From: Candidatus Woesearchaeota archaeon
GTDB taxonomy: Archaea > Nanobdellota > Nanobdellia > Pacearchaeales > GW2011-AR1
Assembly: GCA_964443535.1 (NCBI GenBank)
Contig: CAYUCQ010000003.1
Span: 1-49,570, forward strand
Length of the DNA stretch: 49,570 nucleotides
Direction: 5' to 3'
Made by a program: the position numbers and the translations under genes. This document shows positions 1-28,841 of this stretch, piece after piece (position 1 is the first letter of the stretch; each line of letters opens with the position of its first letter). The notes beneath the pieces are model-generated. The model saw only the letters and a list, made by a program, of their open reading frames with translations. It did not search any database and was not told the DNA's origin.

Positions 1-180
1 AAACTTCTTCTATCAGCTATTACACTCAGTTTCCCGAGATTATAGCTGGCTTGAGGGCAGGTTAGCTACGTGTTACTGAGCAGTTCGCCTTTCCCCTAAT
101 TCTTTCAAACTAAAGAAAATAACTTGCATGTCTTAGTGCAAACCAGATAGCCGCAGCCGCCAGCGGGATCAACTGGATTT
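1..180 (-). rRNA. rrs: 16S/SSU rRNA, 5'-terminal ~180 nt (gene runs off the left edge)
   Basis: Reverse complement of ~126-180 reads AAATCCAGTTGATCCCGCTGGCGGCTGCGGCTATCTGGTTTGCACTAAGACATGCAAG, the archaeal SSU 5' end. Reverse complement of 55-89 reads GGCGAACTGCTCAGTAACACGTAGCTAACCTGCCC, the conserved GTAACACGT block. Confidence 0.9.
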
Positions 181-417
181 AAATCTCAGTTGCCCTGACG
201 ACTGTTTCGCACTCGCCTCCAATGAATATTATTGAGTACTACAAATTATAACCTTGCTTGCATACATCATACCTTAATATGCAAACGTCGCTTTTGAATA
301 ATTAGCGACGACAATCATTAAGGCACTCATTACAGTTACCATTTTAACGAATGATTGAGAGAGTATATGATTTATAAAGGTTTCTGCGATGGTTTTTGTT
401 AAATTTAACGAGAGAAA

Positions 418-912
418 ATGATGTTATTTTTGACACATAAAAATAAATATTACGAGATTCATTTAATAGTATGTTTTATGGAAACGAAGATAGCAAGCAT
501 TTACATAAGGCAGGAAAGTGAATCAATGTCTCCTGCTTTTAAAAATAACTTTTCTGGAAAAAGGCCGGATTTTATGATATTAATTCCGCATTTTGGATTT
601 ATATTTGTTGATGTAAAATATAGAAAATTAAACCCTCCATATGATACATATCCGATAGATGTTGATGAAACAGTAAAATATTCTTCCTTGCAGAGAAAAT
701 TCAATCTTCAAATATGGTATGTTTTGTCAAATGAAGAATCTGCTTATAAAACTTGGTTTTGGATTCCTACATCTCAAGTATTAGAATCTGGCATCAAAAA
801 ATATACCTCTCCGAAGTCTGATGCAGAATTCTTTTCAGTACCAACAAGCCATTTTATTCAAATTGCAGATGACGATTCTTTGGAGAGACTATTTTCTAAA
901 TTATTTAAATGA
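418..912 (+). CDS. hypothetical protein, NERD-like / PD-(D/E)xK nuclease-fold candidate
   Basis: ORF track. RPDFMILIPHFGFIFVDVKYRK resembles the D...(D/E)xK core of NERD/restriction-endonuclease-fold proteins. A palindromic TTTATAAA box lies at 371-378. The internal Met at 478 is an alternative start. Confidence 0.45.
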   Translation: MMLFLTHKNKYYEIHLIVCFMETKIASIYIRQESESMSPAFKNNFSGKRPDFMILIPHFGFIFVDVKYRKLNPPYDTYPIDVDETVKYSSLQRKFNLQIWYVLSNEESAYKTWFWIPTSQVLESGIKKYTSPKSDAEFFSVPTSHFIQIADDDSLERLFSKLFK

Positions 913-916
913 GAAA

Positions 917-978
917 TTATTTAGGCTGCTCGAGAGTATCCCAATTTTCTATCAATTCTAAAACAGGAGGGTTTTTTG
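917..978 (-). pseudogene. relic copy of the 3' end of rps2 (last ~19 codons plus stop), left arm of a direct repeat
   Basis: Aligns gap-free with 2192-2253 at 57/62 positions (manual alignment). The minus strand still reads KNPPVLELIENWDTLEQPK*, versus KIPPVSEWIENWDTLEPPK* at the true rps2 end. There is no gene body upstream. Confidence 0.75.
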
Positions 979-998
979 GGATTTTTCGATTAGAACTC

Positions 999-1358
999 TT
1001 ACTTAGAAAATTCTCTAGTCCCATATAATATTTCTAAAATAGTTTTTAATTCGGATACTGTTTCTTTAGTGTATCCCATCTGCTTGTAAACTTGCTCTGT
1101 AAACCTATTTTTGCAATGTTCTCTATATTCATCTAAGGATAAGTATCCTCCTTGAGGCGTTTTAAGAAATATTTTTCTTTCGTTTCTCTTATTATACCTG
1201 ATTTGGTCTTCTAAACCTTCTCCATTCACGTCCTCTACACGAATATCTACTTTTTCGTTCATGTGATTTTGATAATTTCTATTAAGTAAAAATCCGCTAC
1301 CTGCAAAACCTGCAGCAATTGCTAATCCTGCAATTGTTTTGTAAATATGTTTTTTCAT
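999..1358 (-). CDS. hypothetical membrane-anchored protein
   Basis: ORF track. The N-terminal hydrophobic segment IAGLAIAAGFAGSGFLL looks like a signal anchor. No domain recognised. Confidence 0.5.
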   Translation of the reverse strand: MKKHIYKTIAGLAIAAGFAGSGFLLNRNYQNHMNEKVDIRVEDVNGEGLEDQIRYNKRNERKIFLKTPQGGYLSLDEYREHCKNRFTEQVYKQMGYTKETVSELKTILEILYGTREFSK

Positions 1359-1528
1359 AATTTCCTAAGAAATCATTAGTATTTAAATCTCTCGCTTTGT
1401 AGTCACTAATAAGTAACATTATTTTGGTCTTTGTTGCGTATTTTATTTAAGAGGCCCTGGTGAATGTTGGACATGTAATATATTTAATTAATACAAACAT
1501 TTAAATATATAAAAAATCTAAATAGATA

Positions 1529-1768
1529 ATGGCAATAATAACAATCAGTATTGACGATAATATAAATAATGAATTTAGAAAATTCGTAGAAAAAAAATTA
1601 GGAAAGGGAAAAGGCATACTAAAAAAAGCAATAATGGAAGCTATTAGGAAATGGATTGAAGAAGAAGAGCAGAAACAAATTGCAGAAAGACAAATAAAAT
1701 TAATGAAAGATGGAATAATCTCCCTTAAAGGATGGAAATTTAATAGGGAAGAGATACATGAAAGATGA
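1529..1768 (+). CDS. vapB: ribbon-helix-helix (CopG/VapB-type) antitoxin
   Basis: 79 aa. N-terminal beta-strand (IITISID) followed by two helices. Overlaps the downstream PIN gene by 11 nt. Confidence 0.7.
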   Translation: MAIITISIDDNINNEFRKFVEKKLGKGKGILKKAIMEAIRKWIEEEEQKQIAERQIKLMKDGIISLKGWKFNREEIHER

Positions 1769-2189
1769 AGAGCTTTTTTTATTAGACAGTAATGTGCTTA
1801 TTTATGCATATGATAAAAACGAGGACAAAAAAAGAGAAATAGCCTCTAATTTATTGTCTTCTTGCTTTAAAAAAGAAAGGAAGTTTGCTTTGACAAATCA
1901 AATTCTCGCGGAATTTAGCTCAATTTTTCTACAAAAAGGAAAGGGAGACATTAATTTTCTTAGATTAATTATTAATGATCTATTAAATTGTTTTGAATTT
2001 ATAAAATTAATATATAATGAAAAAACAATCCTTCAAGCACTAACTATTAAAGAGAAATTTAAAATTCCTTTTTGGGATTCTTTAATAATTGCAACTATGA
2101 AAGAAAACGGAATTTATAATATTTACACAGAAAATATAAAAGATTTTAATATATCTGGTATAAATGCAGTGAATCTTTTTGGAAAATAA
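1758..2189 (+). CDS. vapC: PIN-domain toxin (VapC-type ribonuclease)
   Basis: LLDSNVLIYAYD N-terminal acidic motif, FWDSLIIATMKENG and a C-terminal TENIKDF motif. Paired with the upstream small antitoxin. Confidence 0.8.
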   Translation: MKDEELFLLDSNVLIYAYDKNEDKKREIASNLLSSCFKKERKFALTNQILAEFSSIFLQKGKGDINFLRLIINDLLNCFEFIKLIYNEKTILQALTIKEKFKIPFWDSLIIATMKENGIYNIYTENIKDFNISGINAVNLFGK

Positions 2190-2191
2190 AT

Positions 2192-3013
2192 TTATTTAGG
2201 CGGCTCAAGAGTATCCCAATTTTCTATCCATTCTGAAACAGGAGGGATTTTTGCGTCAATTTTTCTTTTTTCTGTGTAAAGTTTTGCTAGCAGATAGAAA
2301 ATCATGCTAAGACTTTTTGCGCTTTTATTATTGCCTGGCAGGATTTGCGCTGTGCCTCTAATATAATTGTTAGTGTCGCATATTGCCAGAATTGGAATTC
2401 TTATTCTTTTTGCGTCGTTGAAAGCATTTTTATCTATCCATGGGTCGCAGACAAAAACAAGCTTTGTTTCTATGAAATCTGATAGATTAGGATTTGTCAA
2501 AATTCCTGCAGGATATTGCTTTGTGAATATGCGAATGCCTGTGGCTTTTGAGAATAACTCGAGAGCTTTCCAGCCAGCTTCTCTCTTGCAGACTACAATA
2601 ACATCTTCTGGAGCGTATTTTGAAAGAAATTCTGCTGATGCTCTTATCTTTTCATCTAAAAGAGAAGTATTGAAAACAGCTAGTCCATCTGCTCTTCTTT
2701 TGTAAACAAATGGCTTCATGTCAGGAGTTATTGCGCGTGTTCCTAAATGAATTGAAGATTTTAGATAATCTTCAATAGGAATTAAAGTTTCTGCTTTTTC
2801 TTCATCTGCCTCAATCTTTTTCTTTATGTTTATTTCTTTAGTCTCTGGCTCTATAATTGATTTCTCAAATTCTTTTGCCTTTTTCTTGAGAGCAGCTAAT
2901 TTTGATTTCTTGTCTTCATCTACGCTTTCCTCTTTCTTTGCTCTGGCTGGCTTTTTCTCTTCTAGCAACTCGCCTGCTTCTGCGCCTGTTTCTTCCTTTT
3001 TCTTGCGTGGCAT
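2192..3013 (-). CDS. rps2: ribosomal protein uS2 with ~75-aa Lys/Glu-rich N-terminal extension
   Basis: IHLGTR..., LVFVCDPWIDKNAFNDAKRIRIPILAICDTNN. Has the canonical archaeal neighbourhood (eno, rpoK). Confidence 0.9.
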   Translation of the reverse strand: MPRKKKEETGAEAGELLEEKKPARAKKEESVDEDKKSKLAALKKKAKEFEKSIIEPETKEINIKKKIEADEEKAETLIPIEDYLKSSIHLGTRAITPDMKPFVYKRRADGLAVFNTSLLDEKIRASAEFLSKYAPEDVIVVCKREAGWKALELFSKATGIRIFTKQYPAGILTNPNLSDFIETKLVFVCDPWIDKNAFNDAKRIRIPILAICDTNNYIRGTAQILPGNNKSAKSLSMIFYLLAKLYTEKRKIDAKIPPVSEWIENWDTLEPPK

Positions 3014-3072
3014 TTTTTTAGGAGATAGATGAGGTTTTTAAAGCTTGTTAATTCGGAGAATTTAACCCTTGT

Positions 3073-3095
3073 GAAAAATCTCATCGAGATTTTTC
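3073..3095. repeat. perfect 10-bp inverted repeat (GAAAAATCTC-atc-GAGATTTTTC) between divergent promoters
   Basis: Read directly. Lies between TATA-like boxes for rps2 (~3033-3045, minus) and the phosphatase gene (~3141-3152, plus). Confidence 0.6.
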
Positions 3096-3171
3096 CCGGG
3101 TCTCACACCCATATTCCAGTATTATCGTGGGCTTTGTGATCATTTTTAAAGAGCTTTGCCCTTAAATTATC

Positions 3172-3702
3172 ATGAAAGTATACTTTATGAGGCATGGTGA
3201 AAGCAATTATAATATTAAGGGGTTACTTAATAGCGATCCAAAAAAATTAGTTTATCTGACAAAACGCGGAAAAAAACAGGCCGAAGATATTGTTAAACAA
3301 TTAAAAAATGAAGATATAGAAATTATTTTTACATCTGAATTCTTAAGAGCAAAACAAACCGCAAATGTTATCAATAAATCTCTTAATATACCTATAAAAA
3401 TAGATAAGAGGATTAATGAAAGAAAGACTGGATTTGAAGGTAAACTAGAATCTGATTTTCAAAGATTAATTGAAAAAGATAAATTCAACCTGAAGCCAAA
3501 AGGCGGAGAGTCTTTTCAAGAGGAAAAAAATAGGGTTTTTTCTTTCTTAGAATATTTAAAGAAAACTAAATATGAGAATGTTTTAATTATATCGCATGGA
3601 GAACCTATAATGATATGTGCGGGTTATTTTAAAAAATTGAGCAATGAAGAGATATTAAATGTTAAGATTGATAATTGTGAGTTAATCAAATTTGAGATTT
3701 AA
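3172..3702 (+). CDS. histidine phosphatase family protein (phosphoglycerate-mutase-like)
   Basis: N-terminal MRHGES (RHG catalytic motif) and a distal ISHGEP histidine. Sits next to enolase. Confidence 0.75.
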   Translation: MKVYFMRHGESNYNIKGLLNSDPKKLVYLTKRGKKQAEDIVKQLKNEDIEIIFTSEFLRAKQTANVINKSLNIPIKIDKRINERKTGFEGKLESDFQRLIEKDKFNLKPKGGESFQEEKNRVFSFLEYLKKTKYENVLIISHGEPIMICAGYFKKLSNEEILNVKIDNCELIKFEI

Positions 3703-3743
3703 TAAAGACGAAAACTTAAAAACAAGAATTAATAATGATTATC

Positions 3744-4274
3744 ATGAAAGTATACTTTATGAGGCATGGGCAGACTAATTACAATGTGAGGGATTTATGC
3801 AATTACACTCCGACTAAGAAAATCTATCTTACTAAATTAGGAAAAAGCCAGGTTGAAAAAATAGCTGAAAAATTCAAGGATAAAAGATTAGGAGCTATAT
3901 TTGTTTCAGAGCTGTGGAGGACAAGGCAGACTGCTAGCATCATAAATAAATACTGCAATGCTTTGATAAAAGAAGATGCTCGAATAAATGACAGGAAAAC
4001 TGGCTTTGAAGGCATGCCTCATTCTGAATATCTTAAATTAGTTGAAAAAGATAAATTTAATATAAAACCTAAGGGTGGAGAATCTTTTCAAGAGCAAAAA
4101 AATAGGGTTTTTTCTTTCTTGAACGACTTGAAAAAAATAAAGTATAATATTGCTTTAGTCATAACGCATGAAGAGCCCATGAAAATTATTGAAGGCTACT
4201 TTAATGGCTTGAATGATGAGGAAATGTGGGAAATAAAAGTTCCTAATTGCTATTTGATTGAGTTTGAGATTTGA
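3744..4274 (+). CDS. histidine phosphatase family protein, tandem paralogue
   Basis: MKVYFMRHGQT and ITHEEP. I chose the Met at 3744 because 3740-3769 is identical to 3168-3197 of the first copy. The ORF track starts at 3735. Confidence 0.75.
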   Translation: MKVYFMRHGQTNYNVRDLCNYTPTKKIYLTKLGKSQVEKIAEKFKDKRLGAIFVSELWRTRQTASIINKYCNALIKEDARINDRKTGFEGMPHSEYLKLVEKDKFNIKPKGGESFQEQKNRVFSFLNDLKKIKYNIALVITHEEPMKIIEGYFNGLNDEEMWEIKVPNCYLIEFEI

Positions 4275-25483: not shown

Positions 25484-25882
25484 TTATCCTAATTTATTCT
25501 CTATTACACTCTTTAGCTTTTGAATTACTTCTTTAAAAGAATTTTCGTTTCTATTGAGATGGGAGTATTCAACAAAAAAACCCTCATAAGCTATCCTATT
25601 TCTTAAAATTCTCAAATCATCTAAAATATATATCTCATTCTGATTAAATTCTCTATGTCTTTCTTTTATATAATCAATTAAATCTTTATGGCTTAAAGTT
25701 TTATATCCATCAAGCAGGAGTATTGCTGTGATAAGCTCTTTTATTATTTCATAATAATCTGAAATAATCAGCGCCGCCATTTTTTCCCTATTTTGCATCT
25801 TAATTCTTTCTTCTATTAAAGAAGTCATCTTAAGTATGCTTTTTGCTTTCTCTTTGTCTTTGCTGATTTTTATAAGCTCCAT
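25484..25882 (-). CDS. HEPN-domain protein (toxin partner of the MNT)
   Basis: 132-aa helical protein 1 nt downstream of the nucleotidyltransferase gene. Has LRILRNRIAYEG where HEPN proteins carry R-x4-6-H; here Tyr replaces the His. Confidence 0.65.
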   Translation of the reverse strand: MELIKISKDKEKAKSILKMTSLIEERIKMQNREKMAALIISDYYEIIKELITAILLLDGYKTLSHKDLIDYIKERHREFNQNEIYILDDLRILRNRIAYEGFFVEYSHLNRNENSFKEVIQKLKSVIENKLG

Positions 25883-25883
25883 T

Positions 25884-26408
25884 TTAAAATATTTTTATAT
25901 ATCCTTTAAGCATAATGCCGTTGAGAATATTATTTTTAAGCTCATTATTAAGCTTATGAAAATTTTCTTCAAAAAATAAAGTTATTCTTCTATTTAATGA
26001 TTTTTCGTATTTTTCAAGGTCCAATCTTTTCTTGGGCGCCTGAACAAAAATATCTATATCGCTCTCTTCAATATCTTCGCCTTTGGATGCCGAGCCAAAC
26101 ATTATTATTGCATCAGGCATGCAATTGTCATAAATATAATCCAATAAACCTTCCTGGTAAATCCTTGAAATTATGTTGAATTTTTTATAGAACCTGAACA
26201 ATTTGTTATCTCTATTAGCTCTAAATGTTGGATATAAGCCATTTTTTTCCTTCAAGATAAATCCTTCAGTTAATAAAGCTTTTAAATGGGCTATTGTAGA
26301 AGGCTGTGATAGTTTAACTGCCCTGGACATTTCCCTCATATGAAAATTCTTTTGAGGAAAATTAAAAAATTCCTGCAAAATTTTATATCTGATATAATTT
26401 TGTAGCAT
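25884..26408 (-). CDS. winged-helix + minimal nucleotidyltransferase (MNT) fusion
   Basis: MFGSASKGEDIEESDIDIFV is the GS-x9-11-D-x-D pol-beta NTase motif. N-terminal wHTH: MSRAVKLSQPSTIAHLKALLTEGFILKE. Confidence 0.8.
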   Translation of the reverse strand: MLQNYIRYKILQEFFNFPQKNFHMREMSRAVKLSQPSTIAHLKALLTEGFILKEKNGLYPTFRANRDNKLFRFYKKFNIISRIYQEGLLDYIYDNCMPDAIIMFGSASKGEDIEESDIDIFVQAPKKRLDLEKYEKSLNRRITLFFEENFHKLNNELKNNILNGIMLKGYIKIF

Positions 26409-26541: not shown

Positions 26542-26711
26542 ATTATAGATTTCAGGATAGATATTATTAATTTCCATATTATGAATGTCTTAGGAGCAAG
26601 GGCTATTCCAGACGCGTAACCGTTCCTGTTATCATCATGGTAGCTGCCATTGAAGTTAAGCCTGTTGTCGTTCCAGTTCCTGTCGTCAAGCGCGCCAATT
26701 ATGTAGCCAAT
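26542..26711 (-). pseudogene. decayed fragment homologous to the 3' end of the 249-aa gene
   Basis: 26608-26700 aligns gap-free (~75% by eye) with 26923-27015. The fragment reads IGALDDRNWNDNRLNFNGSYHDDNRNGYASG versus ISALGDRVWYGYGLDFGGSYRVVGRYGCASG. It is bounded by an in-frame stop at 26712-26714 and has no start codon. Confidence 0.6.
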
Positions 26712-26882
26712 TTACCAATTGGGCTTTTCAGCTTCACTGAAATTCCTCGCAAGGAATTTCTGTATTTCATGGCTTTAAAATAAATAAAATAATGCCTTAG
26801 TAAATTGGCGTGTAGCCCTAGCTCATAGGCATTGCCTCACTAAGACAAAATATAATAGAATATAGAATTAATAAATTATTGC

Positions 26883-26908
26883 AAAAAATTTTGCGAGTGC
26901 TTCGCACT
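26883..26908 (-). terminator. hairpin plus U6 after the 249-aa gene
   Basis: The minus strand reads AGUGC-GAA-GCACU, then CGCAAAA, then UUUUUU, starting at the stop codon. Confidence 0.35.
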
Positions 26909-27656
26909 AAACTACGACTACCCCAGACGCGCAACCGTACCTGCCAACAACACGGTAGCTGCCACCGAAGTCAAGCCCGTAGCCGTACCAGACCCTGTCG
27001 CCAAGCGCGGATATTGTTTGAATAGGCTTATTATCAGTATTTACAATCCAAGAACGAGGCTCTTTAATTGGAAAATATTTTGATTGGGAAACTTCTGCCA
27101 AATTTCTTGCGCCATTTTCTTCACAACTTGCGATTATAAATCCGTCATTTGCAAATTCTTCTGCAGTCATTTCTCCATCTTTATATGACTTTCTTGGAGC
27201 AAAGCTGACTTTTCCATCTTCACTAAATCTTACTCCATTTTCTAATCTTCTTCCGCCTTTTAATGCTTTTTCTAATTCTCCTATGTCTAATTCTTTAGAT
27301 ATTCCAACGCCTTTTTCATCATAAACAACGAAAACACCGTGGCTTGATTCATATTCTTCTGGAACCCATAAGTTTCTTTGGAAAATCCAAAGATATTTTT
27401 GCTTCATTATTTCATCTCTTAATTCAACAGCTTCTGGCTCTTTTTGAAAATCTTCTGGACCACAATAAACTGCTTTAAGTAAATATGATGTTTTCTCTCC
27501 GTTTGGAAGAGACATTCTTACAGGATGATTTAATATCTCTTTCGCAGCACCTTTGTAATTATTAGGTCTTATGAAAGGATGGACAAATGCTATATTTTCG
27601 CCTACATCAATTTCTGTGACTTGTTTTTTAATAGTCGGAATATATTGATTTTTCAT
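26907..27656 (-). CDS. hypothetical protein (orphan, 249 aa)
   Basis: ORF track with its own TATA-like box. No motif I recognise. The last ~35 codons are markedly more GC-rich than the rest. Confidence 0.6.
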   Translation of the reverse strand: MKNQYIPTIKKQVTEIDVGENIAFVHPFIRPNNYKGAAKEILNHPVRMSLPNGEKTSYLLKAVYCGPEDFQKEPEAVELRDEIMKQKYLWIFQRNLWVPEEYESSHGVFVVYDEKGVGISKELDIGELEKALKGGRRLENGVRFSEDGKVSFAPRKSYKDGEMTAEEFANDGFIIASCEENGARNLAEVSQSKYFPIKEPRSWIVNTDNKPIQTISALGDRVWYGYGLDFGGSYRVVGRYGCASGVVVV

Positions 27657-27780: not shown

Positions 27781-28035
27781 ATGATAATAAGAAGGCAATT
27801 GGGAGTGAAAGGACAGGTAGTTATACCTAAGGATATTCGGAAAATTCTCGGCTTGGAAACAGGAGAAGAGGTAGTTTTTGAAGTTGTAAATGATGAAGTT
27901 AGGATAAAAAGAGAGGAAGATGTTAACAAAATTGTTGATGACTTTTTCGATGTGCCTGGAAAGAAGAAAAAACAAAGTTCAATAAAAGAAATAAAAAAGA
28001 TTATTTATGAACAATATGATGAAGAAATACCTTGA
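27781..28035 (+). CDS. vapB: AbrB/SpoVT-family antitoxin
   Basis: GVKGQVVIPKDIRKILGLETGEEVVFEV is the swapped-hairpin AbrB motif. Overlaps the PIN gene. Confidence 0.8.
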   Translation: MIIRRQLGVKGQVVIPKDIRKILGLETGEEVVFEVVNDEVRIKREEDVNKIVDDFFDVPGKKKKQSSIKEIKKIIYEQYDEEIP

Positions 28036-28426
28036 CTCTAATGTTTTCCTTTATCCTTTACTATACGAAGATGATAAAGCAAGGGCTGCAAAAGAAATAG
28101 TGCGTGATTTTGTAAGCAAGAAATTTTTGGCTTATACTTCTGTACTTACTTGGGATGAATTTGTTTATATATTAAAAAGAGAGAGAGGAAAGGAGATAGC
28201 TGAAGCAGAAAGTGATAAATTTCTGAAACTTCCTAATCTTTTATTTTTAGATATTAAAAAATCCTTATTATTTAAAGCACAAGAATTAATAAAAAATTAT
28301 AATTTAAAACCAAGGGATGCGATTCATGCTGCGAGCGCTATTGTGAATGATATAAATGAAATTATTTCAGATGAAGAAGATTTTGACAAAATAAAAGAAA
28401 TTAAAAGAATAGGGCTGTCTATTTAG
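28007..28426 (+). CDS. vapC: PIN-domain toxin (VapC-type)
   Basis: YLDSNVFLYPL, TSVLTWDEF, PRDAIHAASAI and a C-terminal SDEEDFDKI motif. The 3' end overlaps the rpl24 3' end by 8 nt. Confidence 0.8.
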   Translation: MNNMMKKYLDSNVFLYPLLYEDDKARAAKEIVRDFVSKKFLAYTSVLTWDEFVYILKRERGKEIAEAESDKFLKLPNLLFLDIKKSLLFKAQELIKNYNLKPRDAIHAASAIVNDINEIISDEEDFDKIKEIKRIGLSI

Positions 28427-28841
28427 CTTCTTTAGGAGCAGTTTTTTCTTTGCCTCTGTTAACTGCCGTGAGTCTATGCTTGTCTTCTAAATTCAATGAT
28501 TGGATTTGAAGCTTGCTTGGATGGAAATAAACATTCACTTTTGAGCCGTCTTTTTTTGTCCTGTAAATGTTTTCCAGAATCACGCGGTTTCTTTTTAAAT
28601 TTACAGAAGTTACTTTTGCTTTTTTCTTCTTGAAAGCGCCCCTCATTACAAGAACTTCATCGCCTTTTCTTATTGGAAGAGAGTTCTTCTTGTGCTTTTC
28701 CTTTAGAGGTTTTGATAAAGGAGAGCCAAGGAATTTGTGCTTTGTGTGCAATGGAGCGTTTGCTATGTATTTTCTTTGCTTCCTTGGAAGCTTGCTTGAA
28801 AGCCAGTGCGTGGAGAATTTATTTTTCATGTTATAGTACAA
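28419..28841 (-). CDS. rpl24: ribosomal protein uL24
   Basis: PRKQRKYIANAPLH...IRKGDEVLVMRGAFKKKKAKVTSV (KOW). The Met at 28829 is an alternative start. Confidence 0.9.
   Translation of the reverse strand: MYYNMKNKFSTHWLSSKLPRKQRKYIANAPLHTKHKFLGSPLSKPLKEKHKKNSLPIRKGDEVLVMRGAFKKKKAKVTSVNLKRNRVILENIYRTKKDGSKVNVYFHPSKLQIQSLNLEDKHRLTAVNRGKEKTAPKEAK

Follow-up and report, generated by a model that had tools for sequence, protein, structure and literature searches.

Relic of the rps2 3' end beside a putative vapBC-like module in the 16S–rps2 gap of a Woesearchaeota archaeon

Genes and borders of the 16S–rps2 island

The locus lies at the left end of a 49,570-nt stretch of DNA from Candidatus Woesearchaeota archaeon (contig CAYUCQ010000003.1), which is herein called the window. 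Its conserved left border is the 5' end of an archaeal 16S rRNA gene on the minus strand (positions 1–179; Rfam RF01959, 97.8 bits, model positions 1–168), and the same 16S flank adjoins the island in the relatives G001–G006, G009, L049, L050, and L081. The right border is formed by rps2 (2192–3013, minus strand), the essential gene of ribosomal protein uS2. It encodes 273 amino acids, matches the Pfam family Ribosomal_S2 (E 1.2e-14), and has orthologues in 38 of 41 relatives.

Next to the 16S border lies orf164 (418–912, plus strand; likely true start at 478), which encodes a conserved DPANN protein and is the ancestral convergent neighbour of rps2. It has 248 homologues at E ≤ 1e-30, with alignments starting from about residue 22, and adjoins the 16S 5' flank in 8 of the 16 family loci. 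The backbone with orf164 beside the 16S gene is considered ancestral because this arrangement is conserved across many genera. Searches of Pfam, NCBIfam, PDB sequences, and PDB profiles gave no match that would tell its function, and the AlphaFold model (mean pLDDT 54) is too poor for a fold search. A PDF...D-V-K motif may tentatively suggest a putative PD-(D/E)xK nuclease.

Between orf164 and rps2, the island holds a left copy of the rps2 3' end (914–978, minus strand), a junction spacer (979–998, read directly from the sequence), orf119 (999–1358, minus strand), and an RHH-PIN gene pair, followed by the right copy of the rps2 3' end (2189–2253, minus strand). The first-pass annotation had described this interval as a single 1.2-kb vapBC cassette, containing a membrane-anchored 119-aa open reading frame (ORF) and an RHH-PIN pair. 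The 119-aa ORF with its hydrophobic N terminus and the PIN domain (by Pfam) were recovered, whereas the RHH assignment is putative, and the single cassette has to be divided into the lineage-specific orf119 and a discrete RHH-PIN module with a history of its own.

orf119 encodes a small protein with a hydrophobic N terminus, as seen in the sequence, and no family match. Among 5.8 billion proteins, one homologue was found (95% identity; contig L054 of a sister strain), and orf119, known only from its own strain cluster, is a passenger gene. In G001 and G002, its slot is taken by an unrelated 81-aa ORF and a 135-aa HTH ORF. As the first-pass annotation had also stated for integrases and transposases, the ORF list and Pfam reveal no integrase, recombinase, transposase, or other mobility gene in 914–2253. 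Terminal inverted repeats at 979 and 2190 are likewise absent. A transposon or insertion sequence was rejected on these grounds—no transposase, no terminal inverted repeats—and because the duplication is long and variable.

The RHH-PIN module begins with an operator-like palindrome and the promoter region (1478–1528, plus strand; inverted repeat at 1478–1510). The palindrome has the consensus ATATATTTAAAT-N9-ATTTAAATATAT and is conserved in 7/7 copies of the module. It is followed by a gene for a 79-aa putative RHH-type antitoxin (VapB-like; 1529–1768, plus strand), which overlaps the toxin gene by 11 nt according to the ORF list. This protein shows 89–95% amino acid identity in other carriers, no Pfam match above the cut-off, and no PDB match; its size, its position, and a weak NikR-type RHH-like match (E 0.038) point to an RHH fold. 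The second gene (1758–2189, plus strand) encodes a 143-aa predicted toxin with a PIN domain (VapC-like; Pfam PF01850, E 7.5e-08), in which the acidic active-site residues D10, E52, D107, and E125/D129 are present. Its stop codon lies 2 nt from that of rps2. With a PIN toxin, a small upstream overlapping gene, and a palindromic operator-like site, the module fits a predicted type II VapBC system. A second PIN pair in the window adjoins rpl24, and no relic of the rpl24 tail is found there.

Two copies of the rps2 3' end

A repeat search of the window aligned 914–978 with 2189–2253 over 65 nt, 59 of which are identical (91%). For 917–978 and 2192–2253, a direct count gave 57 equal positions out of 62, the same number as in the first-pass annotation. 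Its further descriptions hold as well: the right copy is the real end of rps2, contiguous with the 273-aa uS2 ORF, and the left copy is a minus-strand tail without a gene body, reading ...KNPPVLELIENWDTLEQPK and a stop codon. The search of the whole 609-kb genome for further copies, which had been proposed as a check, gave exactly these two (E 7.7e-30 and 1.2e-20), and a chance origin of the repeat is thereby excluded.

The left copy consists of the last 19 codons and the stop codon of rps2 (917–978), followed by 3 nt past the stop. At each site where the copies differ, the right copy has the conserved state; hence, all five differences are derived in the left copy, and four of them are nonsynonymous (P to Q, W to L, S to L, and I to N). 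Therefore, no difference existed between the two copies when the event took place; the left one has decayed since and is now 8% diverged. It matches the right copy of its own genome at 57/62 positions and any other tail at 48/62 at most. The left copy is thus a pseudogene fragment of the rps2 3' end, and this relic, though clear, is a rather ordinary scar of recombination.

When 763 ORF ends of the genome were scanned with 40-mers for other gene-end relics, with shuffled partners as a control, rps2 alone stood out. The next match is a tandem paralogue pair, and another one is a DGR VR/TR pair. A DGR TR/VR origin of the rps2 repeat itself was rejected, since its mismatches (A/T, T/G, G/A, A/C, A/G, and T/A) are not adenine-specific. 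The window contains a true DGR pair at 26608/26923, in which 17/17 mismatches are adenine-specific.

At the inner end of the relic, the duplicated segment closes with bases (in the right copy, GGGATTTTTG) that recur immediately in the spacer as GGATTTTT, which is possibly a junctional microhomology; a clean microhomology join was not seen at this junction. A homology between the spacer (979–998) and the edge of the G002 island next to the 16S gene was considered and discarded, as it amounts to an 8-mer and is not significant.

The arrangement is covered by contigs from other assemblies. L079 (99.3% identical to window positions 1–1697) covers orf164, the left copy, orf119, and the RHH gene, and L073 (99.9% to positions 1031–3763) covers orf119, the RHH and PIN genes, the right copy, and rps2. 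L054 (97.7%) from the sister strain holds the inner junction of the left copy. Whole copies are letter-identical to the window in every covering contig, the left one in L079 and the right one in L073–L078.

Empty sites and recombination at the 16S–rps2 gap

An empty site with orf164 directly convergent on rps2 had been predicted from the sequence alone. Such sites exist in two relatives, G005 and L081, where orf164 directly faces an intact rps2 and the tail is single-copy. Window positions 498–978 are colinear with L081 534–1013 (80%), and the alignment stops exactly at the inner end of the relic, position 978. Herein, the relic aligns colinearly with the genuine rps2 tails of both L081 and G005, and the orf164 stop lies 4 nt from the relic, which is the same spacing as in the empty sites. 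A second copy of the rps2 tail is absent from 30 other relatives with or without the module, of which 9 belong to the genus or to its nearest neighbour and 21 to the wider family or order. Relatives that lack the cassette and still carry both copies, which would have spoken against an insertion, were looked for and not seen among these 30. The earlier proposal of an insertion at the rps2 3' end with duplication or regeneration of the target is, hence, supported by the empty sites and by the lack of a second tail elsewhere. All six contigs with an identical rps2 protein carry the module (6/6); neither a donor-type allele (orf119–vapBC–rps2 without the relic) nor an empty site in the same strain was found.

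The gene content of the 16S–rps2 gap differs in nearly every congener, and toxin–antitoxin (TA) modules are over-represented in it. In G003, the same gap contains a large serine recombinase (Resolvase and Recombinase domains) with another PIN pair. No tRNA or ncRNA attachment sites were found in the islands of the relatives. Two strains that are otherwise 99.3% identical differ in a 67-nt patch of orf164 by 11 mostly third-position changes, and a comparison of G001 with G002 shows rps2 to be mosaic. Because of this patch and this mosaic, the 16S–rps2 spot is judged to be a site of active recombination with diverged DNA.

Spread and ends of the RHH-PIN module

The copies of the module in seven contigs share 86–92% identity, no matter how distant the hosts are. 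Compared with G001/G002, the module is 88–95% identical, and the identity drops to about 77% at the rps2 stop. Its dS is 0.30–0.55 versus 1.4–1.5 for rps2 and 1.1 for eno, i.e., about 3-fold lower than that of the flanking genes. Among the PIN homologues, a tight clade shares at least 83% amino acid identity, and the next ones follow after a gap, at 52% or less. Since the identity ignores host distance, the dS is low, and the PIN clade is tight, the module has, by these sequence measures, an evolutionary history apart from its flanks and is mobile among lineages.

It is a discrete unit of ~0.71 kb, reaching from the operator palindrome to the toxin stop codon. When the seven copies are compared in pairs, the homology starts 49 to 54 nt ahead of the RHH ATG in 19 of the 21 pairs; it reaches further left only in the close host pairs G001/G002 (−59) and L049/L050 (−140). 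The breakpoints at the right end vary by several nucleotides (+652 versus +659). In at least three host lineages—the own genome, G001/G002, L049, and probably L087—the module abuts the rps2 stop with a spacing of 0 to 2 nt, and the adjoining rps2 tails are host-like, meaning that they diverge like the host and not like the module.

A second locus, at which the module has the same ends, lies between a DUF3810-like gene and proS in L083/L084. This site is empty in the own genome (C1 61200–61387). The target is unrelated to rps2, and there is no long duplication. A 10-mer of the rps2 tail (TTATTTAGGC) to the left of the module at the proS locus was dismissed as native intergenic sequence, since it is present in the empty site too.

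At rps2, the length of the tail duplication differs between lineages: 62 nt here, 32 nt in L049, and none in G001/G002. The 32-nt relic of L049 (91%) is independent and located directly at the left end of the module. L050 contains a 114-nt repeat made of 32 nt of the rps2 tail and 82 nt of the start of the neighbouring orf128 and its upstream region, arranged as j-t-V-M-j-t, for which no single generating event was found. In L087, the module and a 19-nt fragment of the rps2 tail lie beside a different gene, provided that this contig is not chimeric. Searches of IMG/VR and PLSDB gave no virus or plasmid copy of the module.

Origin of the arrangement

The preferred reading, to which we assign a probability of about 60%, is that host recombination and repair joined the segment 979–2190 into the rps2 tail and stranded the relic, be it by an illegitimate or homology-facilitated route or by an equivalent of long target duplication. 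Host-mediated recombination of this kind is favoured because the duplications vary, the second target is unrelated, and a recombinase is absent. What is established is that the site was empty in the ancestral state, that the window is colinear with an empty-site relative, that the relic has decayed, and that the module has a separate history and a second locus. In the ancestor, orf164 and rps2 would have been tightly convergent and 4 to 5 nt apart. The 1.21-kb segment 979–2190, consisting of orf119 and the RHH-PIN module, would then have been joined 62 nt inside rps2, probably by the recombination and repair of the host itself rather than by an element-encoded or dedicated integrase. By this join, the final 62 nt of rps2, either the original ones or a duplicate, would have been left behind as the left copy. 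rps2 stayed intact because a full copy of the gene end now lies to the right of the insert, and in a compact genome, the only survivors would be events that regenerate the gene end. A likely route would be recombination between two alleles of the 16S–rps2 island from the same species, one of the orf164 type and one of the orf119–vapBC type; insertion with long target duplication would be an equivalent alternative. As a selfish addiction unit, the TA module would spread between related Woesearchaeota and probably stabilize whatever arrangement it enters.

The constant left end of the module (−49 to −54) and its stop spacing of 0 to 2 nt are not obviously remade by random illegitimate joins. This hints that the mechanism is more specific or that strong selection has trimmed the module down to its functional unit. 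A bolder reading would see the RHH-PIN unit as a recombinase-less mobile cassette with defined ends, which spreads in DPANN via host recombination and repair, prefers the stops of convergent essential genes, and makes long and variable gene-end duplications. We regard this as a tentative and rather unlikely generalization.

Unlikely, too, is site-specific integration in trans, in which the rps2 3' end would be attB, the interval a decayed or non-autonomous CIME-like element, and the two tail copies attL and attR, made by a tyrosine or serine recombinase that is encoded elsewhere. The first-pass annotation had noted a likeness to att sites and had named a decayed or trans-mobilized element as one possibility. 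Direct repeats of a gene 3' end around an insert are the classical signature of such integration. The junction of module and rps2 stop in at least three lineages with host-like tails looks as if it were recreated each time, the second lineage with a tail relic directly at the left module end fits as well, and so do the sharply defined module ends and the serine recombinase beside another PIN pair in the G003 gap. However, an att element would have the same target and the same repeat extent, whereas the repeats measure 62, 32, and 0 nt, the insert content differs between events, and the target upstream of proS (L084) is unrelated and without a long repeat. The relic corresponds to the own right copy plus decay and not to a hybrid of host and element, and the right-end breakpoints of the module differ. 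Recombinases are scarce: the interval has no integrase, and the genome (85% complete) contains one tyrosine-recombinase (Xer-like) fragment on C11 and no serine recombinase or resolvase. To our knowledge, serine recombinases do not create such repeats. The lack of viral and plasmid copies in the databases searched also disfavours an element of this kind.

Two further scenarios are quite improbable. In the first one, a cycle without any recombinase, homologous recombination between the tail copies would free a circle of the insert and one tail, which would re-enter naive relatives by a single crossover in the rps2 tail; the repeat would then be a vehicle and not a passive scar. The architecture allows this, the module is demonstrably mobile among lineages, and the module of L087 with its tail fragment would agree with it if the contig is not chimeric. 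However, each relic is nearest to the tail of its own host and not to a module-borne version, the tails beside the module diverge as the host does, and repeats of 62 nt (92%) or 32 nt (91%) are a poor substrate for recombination. The copies in G001/G002 and at the proS locus have no repeat, and the relic is decaying instead of being conserved.

The second scenario, with a similarly poor chance, is an in situ rearrangement without import. Herein, vapBC and orf164 would both be ancestral, and the tail would have been copied by tandem duplication and deletion or by template switching during replication. The identity of the copies at the event agrees with this, and the L050 repeat, which is hard to obtain from a simple insertion, suggests local steps of duplication and deletion. 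It would, however, take several steps, one of them a precise deletion after which the stop codon of orf164 would lie 4 nt away from the relic, just like at the empty sites. In addition, the relic is young (8%) compared with the divergence of the module from G001/G002 (about 10–11% under selection, dS 0.3–0.55) and with that of the hosts, and no relative has orf164 and vapBC together without the relic.

Last, an assembly artefact, i.e., a chimeric join of two strain variants via a shared 21-mer, is effectively refuted. Several short contigs of other assemblies do end within or close to the repeat, with L054 beginning at window position 961 and L073 reaching no further than about the 3' end of orf119. 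The junctions are, however, bridged in three independent metagenome assemblies. L079, which comes from another sample, reads through the entire left copy into unique sequence at either side. The left copy carries five private substitutions and continues into unique sequence, and its inner junction is confirmed by L054 from a strain that differs by 2.3%.

Implications for compact archaeal genomes

The locus is an unusually well-documented case of natural gene gain in the ultra-small DPANN genome of a groundwater archaeon, as it is backed by three independent assemblies, empty sites in two relatives, a further relic of independent origin, and another locus with the module. Here, a compact genome took in an accessory gene and a selfish TA module at the very end of the essential rps2, which remained undamaged, and no integrase is visible. 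In this genus, the 16S–rps2 gap is a hypervariable island that collects TA modules. If general, the finding bears on how DPANN and CPR-type genomes with few mobile-element enzymes acquire genes. Should the reading as a recombinase-less cassette be true, it would describe a general and so far undescribed route by which TA modules and small genes dragged along enter streamlined archaea.

Comparison with known systems

Hypervariable regions next to rRNA genes are known from SAR11, where a flexible island lies between conserved core flanks. The 16S–rps2 gap resembles them by its variable content, the over-representation of TA modules, and recombination tracts in the flanks. In contrast, the island described here is tiny (0.2–3.5 kb) and contains explicit gene-end relics.

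Integrase-bearing elements regenerate the 3' end of their target gene, as tRNA-gene integrators do and as e14 and phage 21 do in icd of E. coli. CIMEs are integrase-less derivatives of such gene-end integrating elements. An intact gene end by the insert and a displaced partial copy at its far side are common to these systems and the locus studied here, and CIMEs share the lack of an integrase. The differences are that duplication lengths vary by lineage, that the same module occurs at an unrelated target, that the relic is no element-type variant, and that no cognate integrase was found.

Homology-facilitated illegitimate recombination (HFIR) is described for bacteria with natural transformation and for conjugation of E. 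coli (PMC3240628). It is not known to have been demonstrated in archaea of this group. One conserved anchor (the 16S rRNA gene or rps2) and one illegitimate join would give the present product without an element-encoded enzyme. A clean microhomology is, however, lacking here, and the constant module ends are not predicted by random joins.

The closest likeness is to insertion with long target duplication of restriction–modification (R-M) gene complexes, as reportedly described by Nobusato et al. in 2000. Both involve a small addiction-type module without a mobility gene and direct repeats of more than 30 bp (62–65 nt here), which are single-copy at the empty site of relatives and unique in the genome. 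In both, the repeat length varies by event, and some of the repeats overlap the 3' end of a neighbouring gene. [quoted passage not shown] The "uncharacterised way" of TA movement, which the first-pass annotation had suggested as one possibility, thus has a counterpart of matching kind (PMC2853133). The locus would extend insertion with long target duplication from bacterial R-M units to TA modules and to archaea. It differs in its cargo, which is a type II TA pair with a small ORF instead of an R-M system, and since this cargo has no DNA-cutting enzyme, a staggered break made by the cargo itself does not come into question. It differs as well in its host, a DPANN archaeon, and in its duplicated target, which is where the coding sequence of the essential rps2 ends.

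The duplicated rps2 3′ end

The source assembly is an archaeal MAG of 609 kb in 47 contigs (85% complete), of which the window is contig C3. It begins with the 5′ end of the 16S rRNA gene (1–179, minus strand), which is followed by orf164 (418–912, plus), the left repeat copy (914–978), orf119 (999–1358, minus), a 79-aa ORF with a putative RHH antitoxin fold (1529–1768, plus) that overlaps the PIN-domain ORF (1758–2189, plus), and rps2 (2192–3013, minus). Beyond rps2 lie two histidine-phosphatase paralogues and then enolase. This tandem phosphatase region (3126–4179) exists as a strain variant in contig L074, which matches 3259–4179 and 1870–3126 with a different 79-nt link, suggesting that the paralogues recombined with each other.

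The 62-bp duplicate of the rps2 3′ end reported in the first-pass annotation is real: 57 of 62 positions are identical between 917–978 and 2192–2253 on recounting, and 59 of 65 between 914–978 and 2189–2253 in a repeat search. The whole 609-kb MAG contains these two copies and no others. An assembly artefact is ruled out by three contigs crossing the junctions. L079, from another sample (99.3% identical to 1–1697), spans the entire left copy from orf164 to orf119 and the RHH ORF; L073 (99.9% to 1031–3763) spans the right copy; and L054, from a strain diverged by 2.3%, has the inner junction of the left copy. Wherever a contig covers either copy whole, that copy is letter-identical to the window.

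The empty site that had been predicted, with orf164 convergent on rps2, is found twice, in the relative G005 and in metagenome contig L081. Herein, the 16S flank is followed by orf164 and an intact, directly convergent rps2, the stop codons being 4–5 nt apart. Positions 534–1013 of L081 are colinear with 498–978 of the window (80%), and the alignment stops exactly at the end of the left copy. orf164 is a member of a DPANN protein family that is both large and well conserved (248 matches at E ≤ 1e-30), and in many genera it neighbours the 16S 5′ flank; hence, the 16S–orf164–rps2 backbone is ancestral.

The left copy matches the tail of any other lineage at 48 of 62 positions at most, and all of these tails are 2–5 positions nearer to the right copy, so that all five left-copy differences are derived. 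Four of the five are non-synonymous (P→Q, W→L, S→L, and I→N), each at a conserved position. Thus, the copies started out identical, and the left one decayed after the event. Relatives with or without the module were also checked for both copies: a second rps2 tail occurs in 0 of 30, of which 9 are other genomes from the genus or its nearest neighbour and 21 are more distant members of the family or order. The left copy is a relic of the gene end, stranded by insertion, and it may secondarily act as an oligo-T terminator for orf164 (GGGTTTTTTGGGATTTTT). In a 40-mer scan of the 763 ORF ends of this genome, no gene other than rps2 stands out with such a relic. The empty sites, the colinearity, and the derived left-copy changes support the earlier proposal that DNA inserted at the rps2 3′ end with target duplication.

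A discrete module within a composite interval

The interval between the copies had been described as a single 1.2-kb vapBC cassette. The RHH–PIN pair is indeed present, but the interval is composite, with orf119 separate from a discrete module. orf119 has one homologue among 5.8 billion proteins, in a sister strain, and its slot is occupied by unrelated genes in the relatives G001 (81-aa ORF) and G002 (135-aa HTH protein).

The RHH–PIN pair itself is a discrete module. Seven copies (window, G001, G002, and the relatives' contigs L049, L050, L084, and L087) were compared in 21 pairs. In 19 of them, homology starts 49–54 nt upstream of the antitoxin ATG, coinciding with a conserved palindrome, ATATATTTAAAT-N9-ATTTAAATATAT; wherever contexts differ, it stops at +652 to +659 (toxin stop at +661). 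Against G001 and G002, module identity is 88–95% and falls to ~77% exactly at the rps2 stop; dS is 0.30–0.55 for the two module genes; rps2 stands at 1.4–1.5 and enolase at 1.1, and the phosphatase is saturated. Module identity is 86–92% in all pairs irrespective of host distance, being lower than rps2 identity in close host pairs and higher in distant ones. The PIN homologues form a tight clade (≥83% amino acid identity), the next ones reaching ≤52%. Sharp ends, low dS, host-independent identity, and the tight PIN clade together give the module a separate and more recent history.

In L083/L084 (GCA_964610585.1, a Woesearchaeota MAG, and two Logan assemblies), the same 710 nt, 87.9% identical and ungapped, are also found with a DUF3810-like gene on one side and proS on the other. 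In the window's own genome, these genes are adjacent and the site is empty (contig C1, 61200–61387). The L083/L084 locus shows no evident long duplication. The PIN stop codon of the copy there is changed, making the protein five residues longer.

The 16S–rps2 gap across relatives

The gap is a hypervariable, TA-collecting island. It holds orf164 only in G005 and L081, an 81-aa ORF and the module in G001, an HTH ORF and the module in G002, a 116-aa ORF in G004, and almost nothing in G006 and G009. L049 contains two membrane proteins, an RHH–MazF pair, and the module, and L050 the module with four other small genes. In G003, the gap (L035, 6538–8040 and neighbours) contains a large serine recombinase (500 aa, Resolvase and Recombinase domains), an AbrB–PIN pair, and a DDE transposase fragment.

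L049 carries a 32-nt relic of its own lineage's rps2 tail (29/32) immediately left of the module, with the MazF stop 4 nt from this relic. In L050, the same 32 nt sit inside a 114-nt direct repeat (94%; 1591–1704 and 3945–4059) composed of the first 50 nt of orf128, the gene now adjoining rps2, its upstream region, and the rps2 tail; the repeat brackets vapBC and the four small genes. No derivation of this gene order from a single insertion was found. Since the duplication is built from the lineage's own tail, it is independent of that in the window and constitutes a second event of different length. Non-coding DNA of ~400 nt by the L050 16S flank includes several strong hairpins (1270–1440, e.g., ctgcggcttaaaagccgcag) without Rfam or tRNA match. 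No rps2-tail relic is found in G001 or G002. In L087 (1697–1878), a 19-nt rps2 tail fragment of G005 type comes after the module, and the GC content then jumps abruptly to 53%; the GC-rich ORF there, which is M16-peptidase-like, takes its last codons from the fragment. The module may have carried part of a gene end along, or else this contig, at 3× coverage, is chimeric.

Timing and recombination

The relic differs from the live rps2 tail by 8%, consistent with essentially neutral decay on one side. The hosts (window versus G001/G002) differ at dS above 1 and the module copies at 0.3–0.55; the likely order is host divergence, module spread, and then the relic-making event. Identity of the copies at the event implies either same-species partner DNA, whereby an orf119–vapBC–rps2 allele would have recombined with an orf164–rps2 allele, or a target duplicated by the mechanism itself. 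No polymorphic empty site is seen, as all six contigs with identical rps2 protein have the module. At 774–840, within orf164 and 80–140 nt from the relic, 11 mostly third-position substitutions in 67 nt separate the window from L079, the strains being otherwise 99.3% identical; this patch resembles a short tract imported by recombination. The rps2 genes of G001 and G002 are 100% identical over ~200 nt (window-equivalent 2558–2757) and 80–92% elsewhere, which points to recent inter-lineage recombination inside rps2.

Other elements in the window

An 87-nt pair (26608–26694 and 26923–27009) shows 17 differences, all of them adenine in the 26608 copy (minus strand) versus G or T in the other; it is a classical DGR template/variable repeat pair. 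The variable copy forms the 3′ end of a 249-aa ORF (26907–27656), and the two copies flank an RT-16 RNA (Rfam; 26698–26845). In 25.5–29.5 kb, no ORF of at least 80 aa for a reverse transcriptase is visible. A second PIN pair (27781–28426 and 28419–28841; AbrB/SpoVT-like, 84 aa, and PIN, 139 aa) interrupts a ribosomal protein operon, converging on rpl24 with an 8-nt overlap of its 3′ end. It has a 68%-identical paralogue on contig C26, and no rpl24 tail relic was found beside it. Judged from its sequence, a HEPN-like (132 aa) and nucleotidyltransferase/HTH (174 aa) pair at 25484–26408 would be a further likely TA module; the window would then hold at least three.

Mechanism of insertion

The favoured reading, equivalent to "insertion with long target duplication," is host-mediated illegitimate or homology-facilitated recombination, for which the two borders of the island, the 16S rRNA gene and rps2, would offer excellent homology anchors. 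In a genome with 4–5 nt convergent spacing, only insertions regenerating the gene end would survive, which by itself can account for the apparent gene-end targeting. The reading is favoured because duplication lengths vary (62, 32, and 0), the second target, the proS locus, is unrelated, right-end breakpoints lie several nucleotides apart, and recombination of diverged DNA is seen at the locus (774–840 patch and mosaic rps2). Moreover, the interval contains no recombinase, and the 85%-complete genome has no serine recombinase and one tyrosine-recombinase fragment only. The variable lengths, the unrelated target, and the lacking recombinase likewise disfavour the att/integrase part of the att-like insertion first proposed, of which insertion with duplication stands.

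Site-specific integration in trans at the rps2 tail is accordingly unlikely, but it is retained, since random joins do not naturally predict the module's constant left end, the module repeatedly sits 0–2 nt from the rps2 stop beside host-type tails, and the G003 serine recombinase shows that true integrative elements use the gap too. A "portable gene-end circle" cycle is likewise retained, as more doubtful still.

Host-mediated recombination has precedents. Insertion with long target duplication is described for restriction-modification addiction modules, with repeats of >30 bp and variable length, no mobility genes, and some repeats overlapping gene 3′ ends (PMC2853133); homology-facilitated illegitimate recombination is described in PMC3240628. 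Hence, the movement of the TA genes, previously thought to be possibly uncharacterised, matches a known kind. It differs from the restriction-modification events in that the cargo is TA-bearing and the host archaeal: the rps2 case is an archaeal, TA-bearing instance of an already known kind of event.
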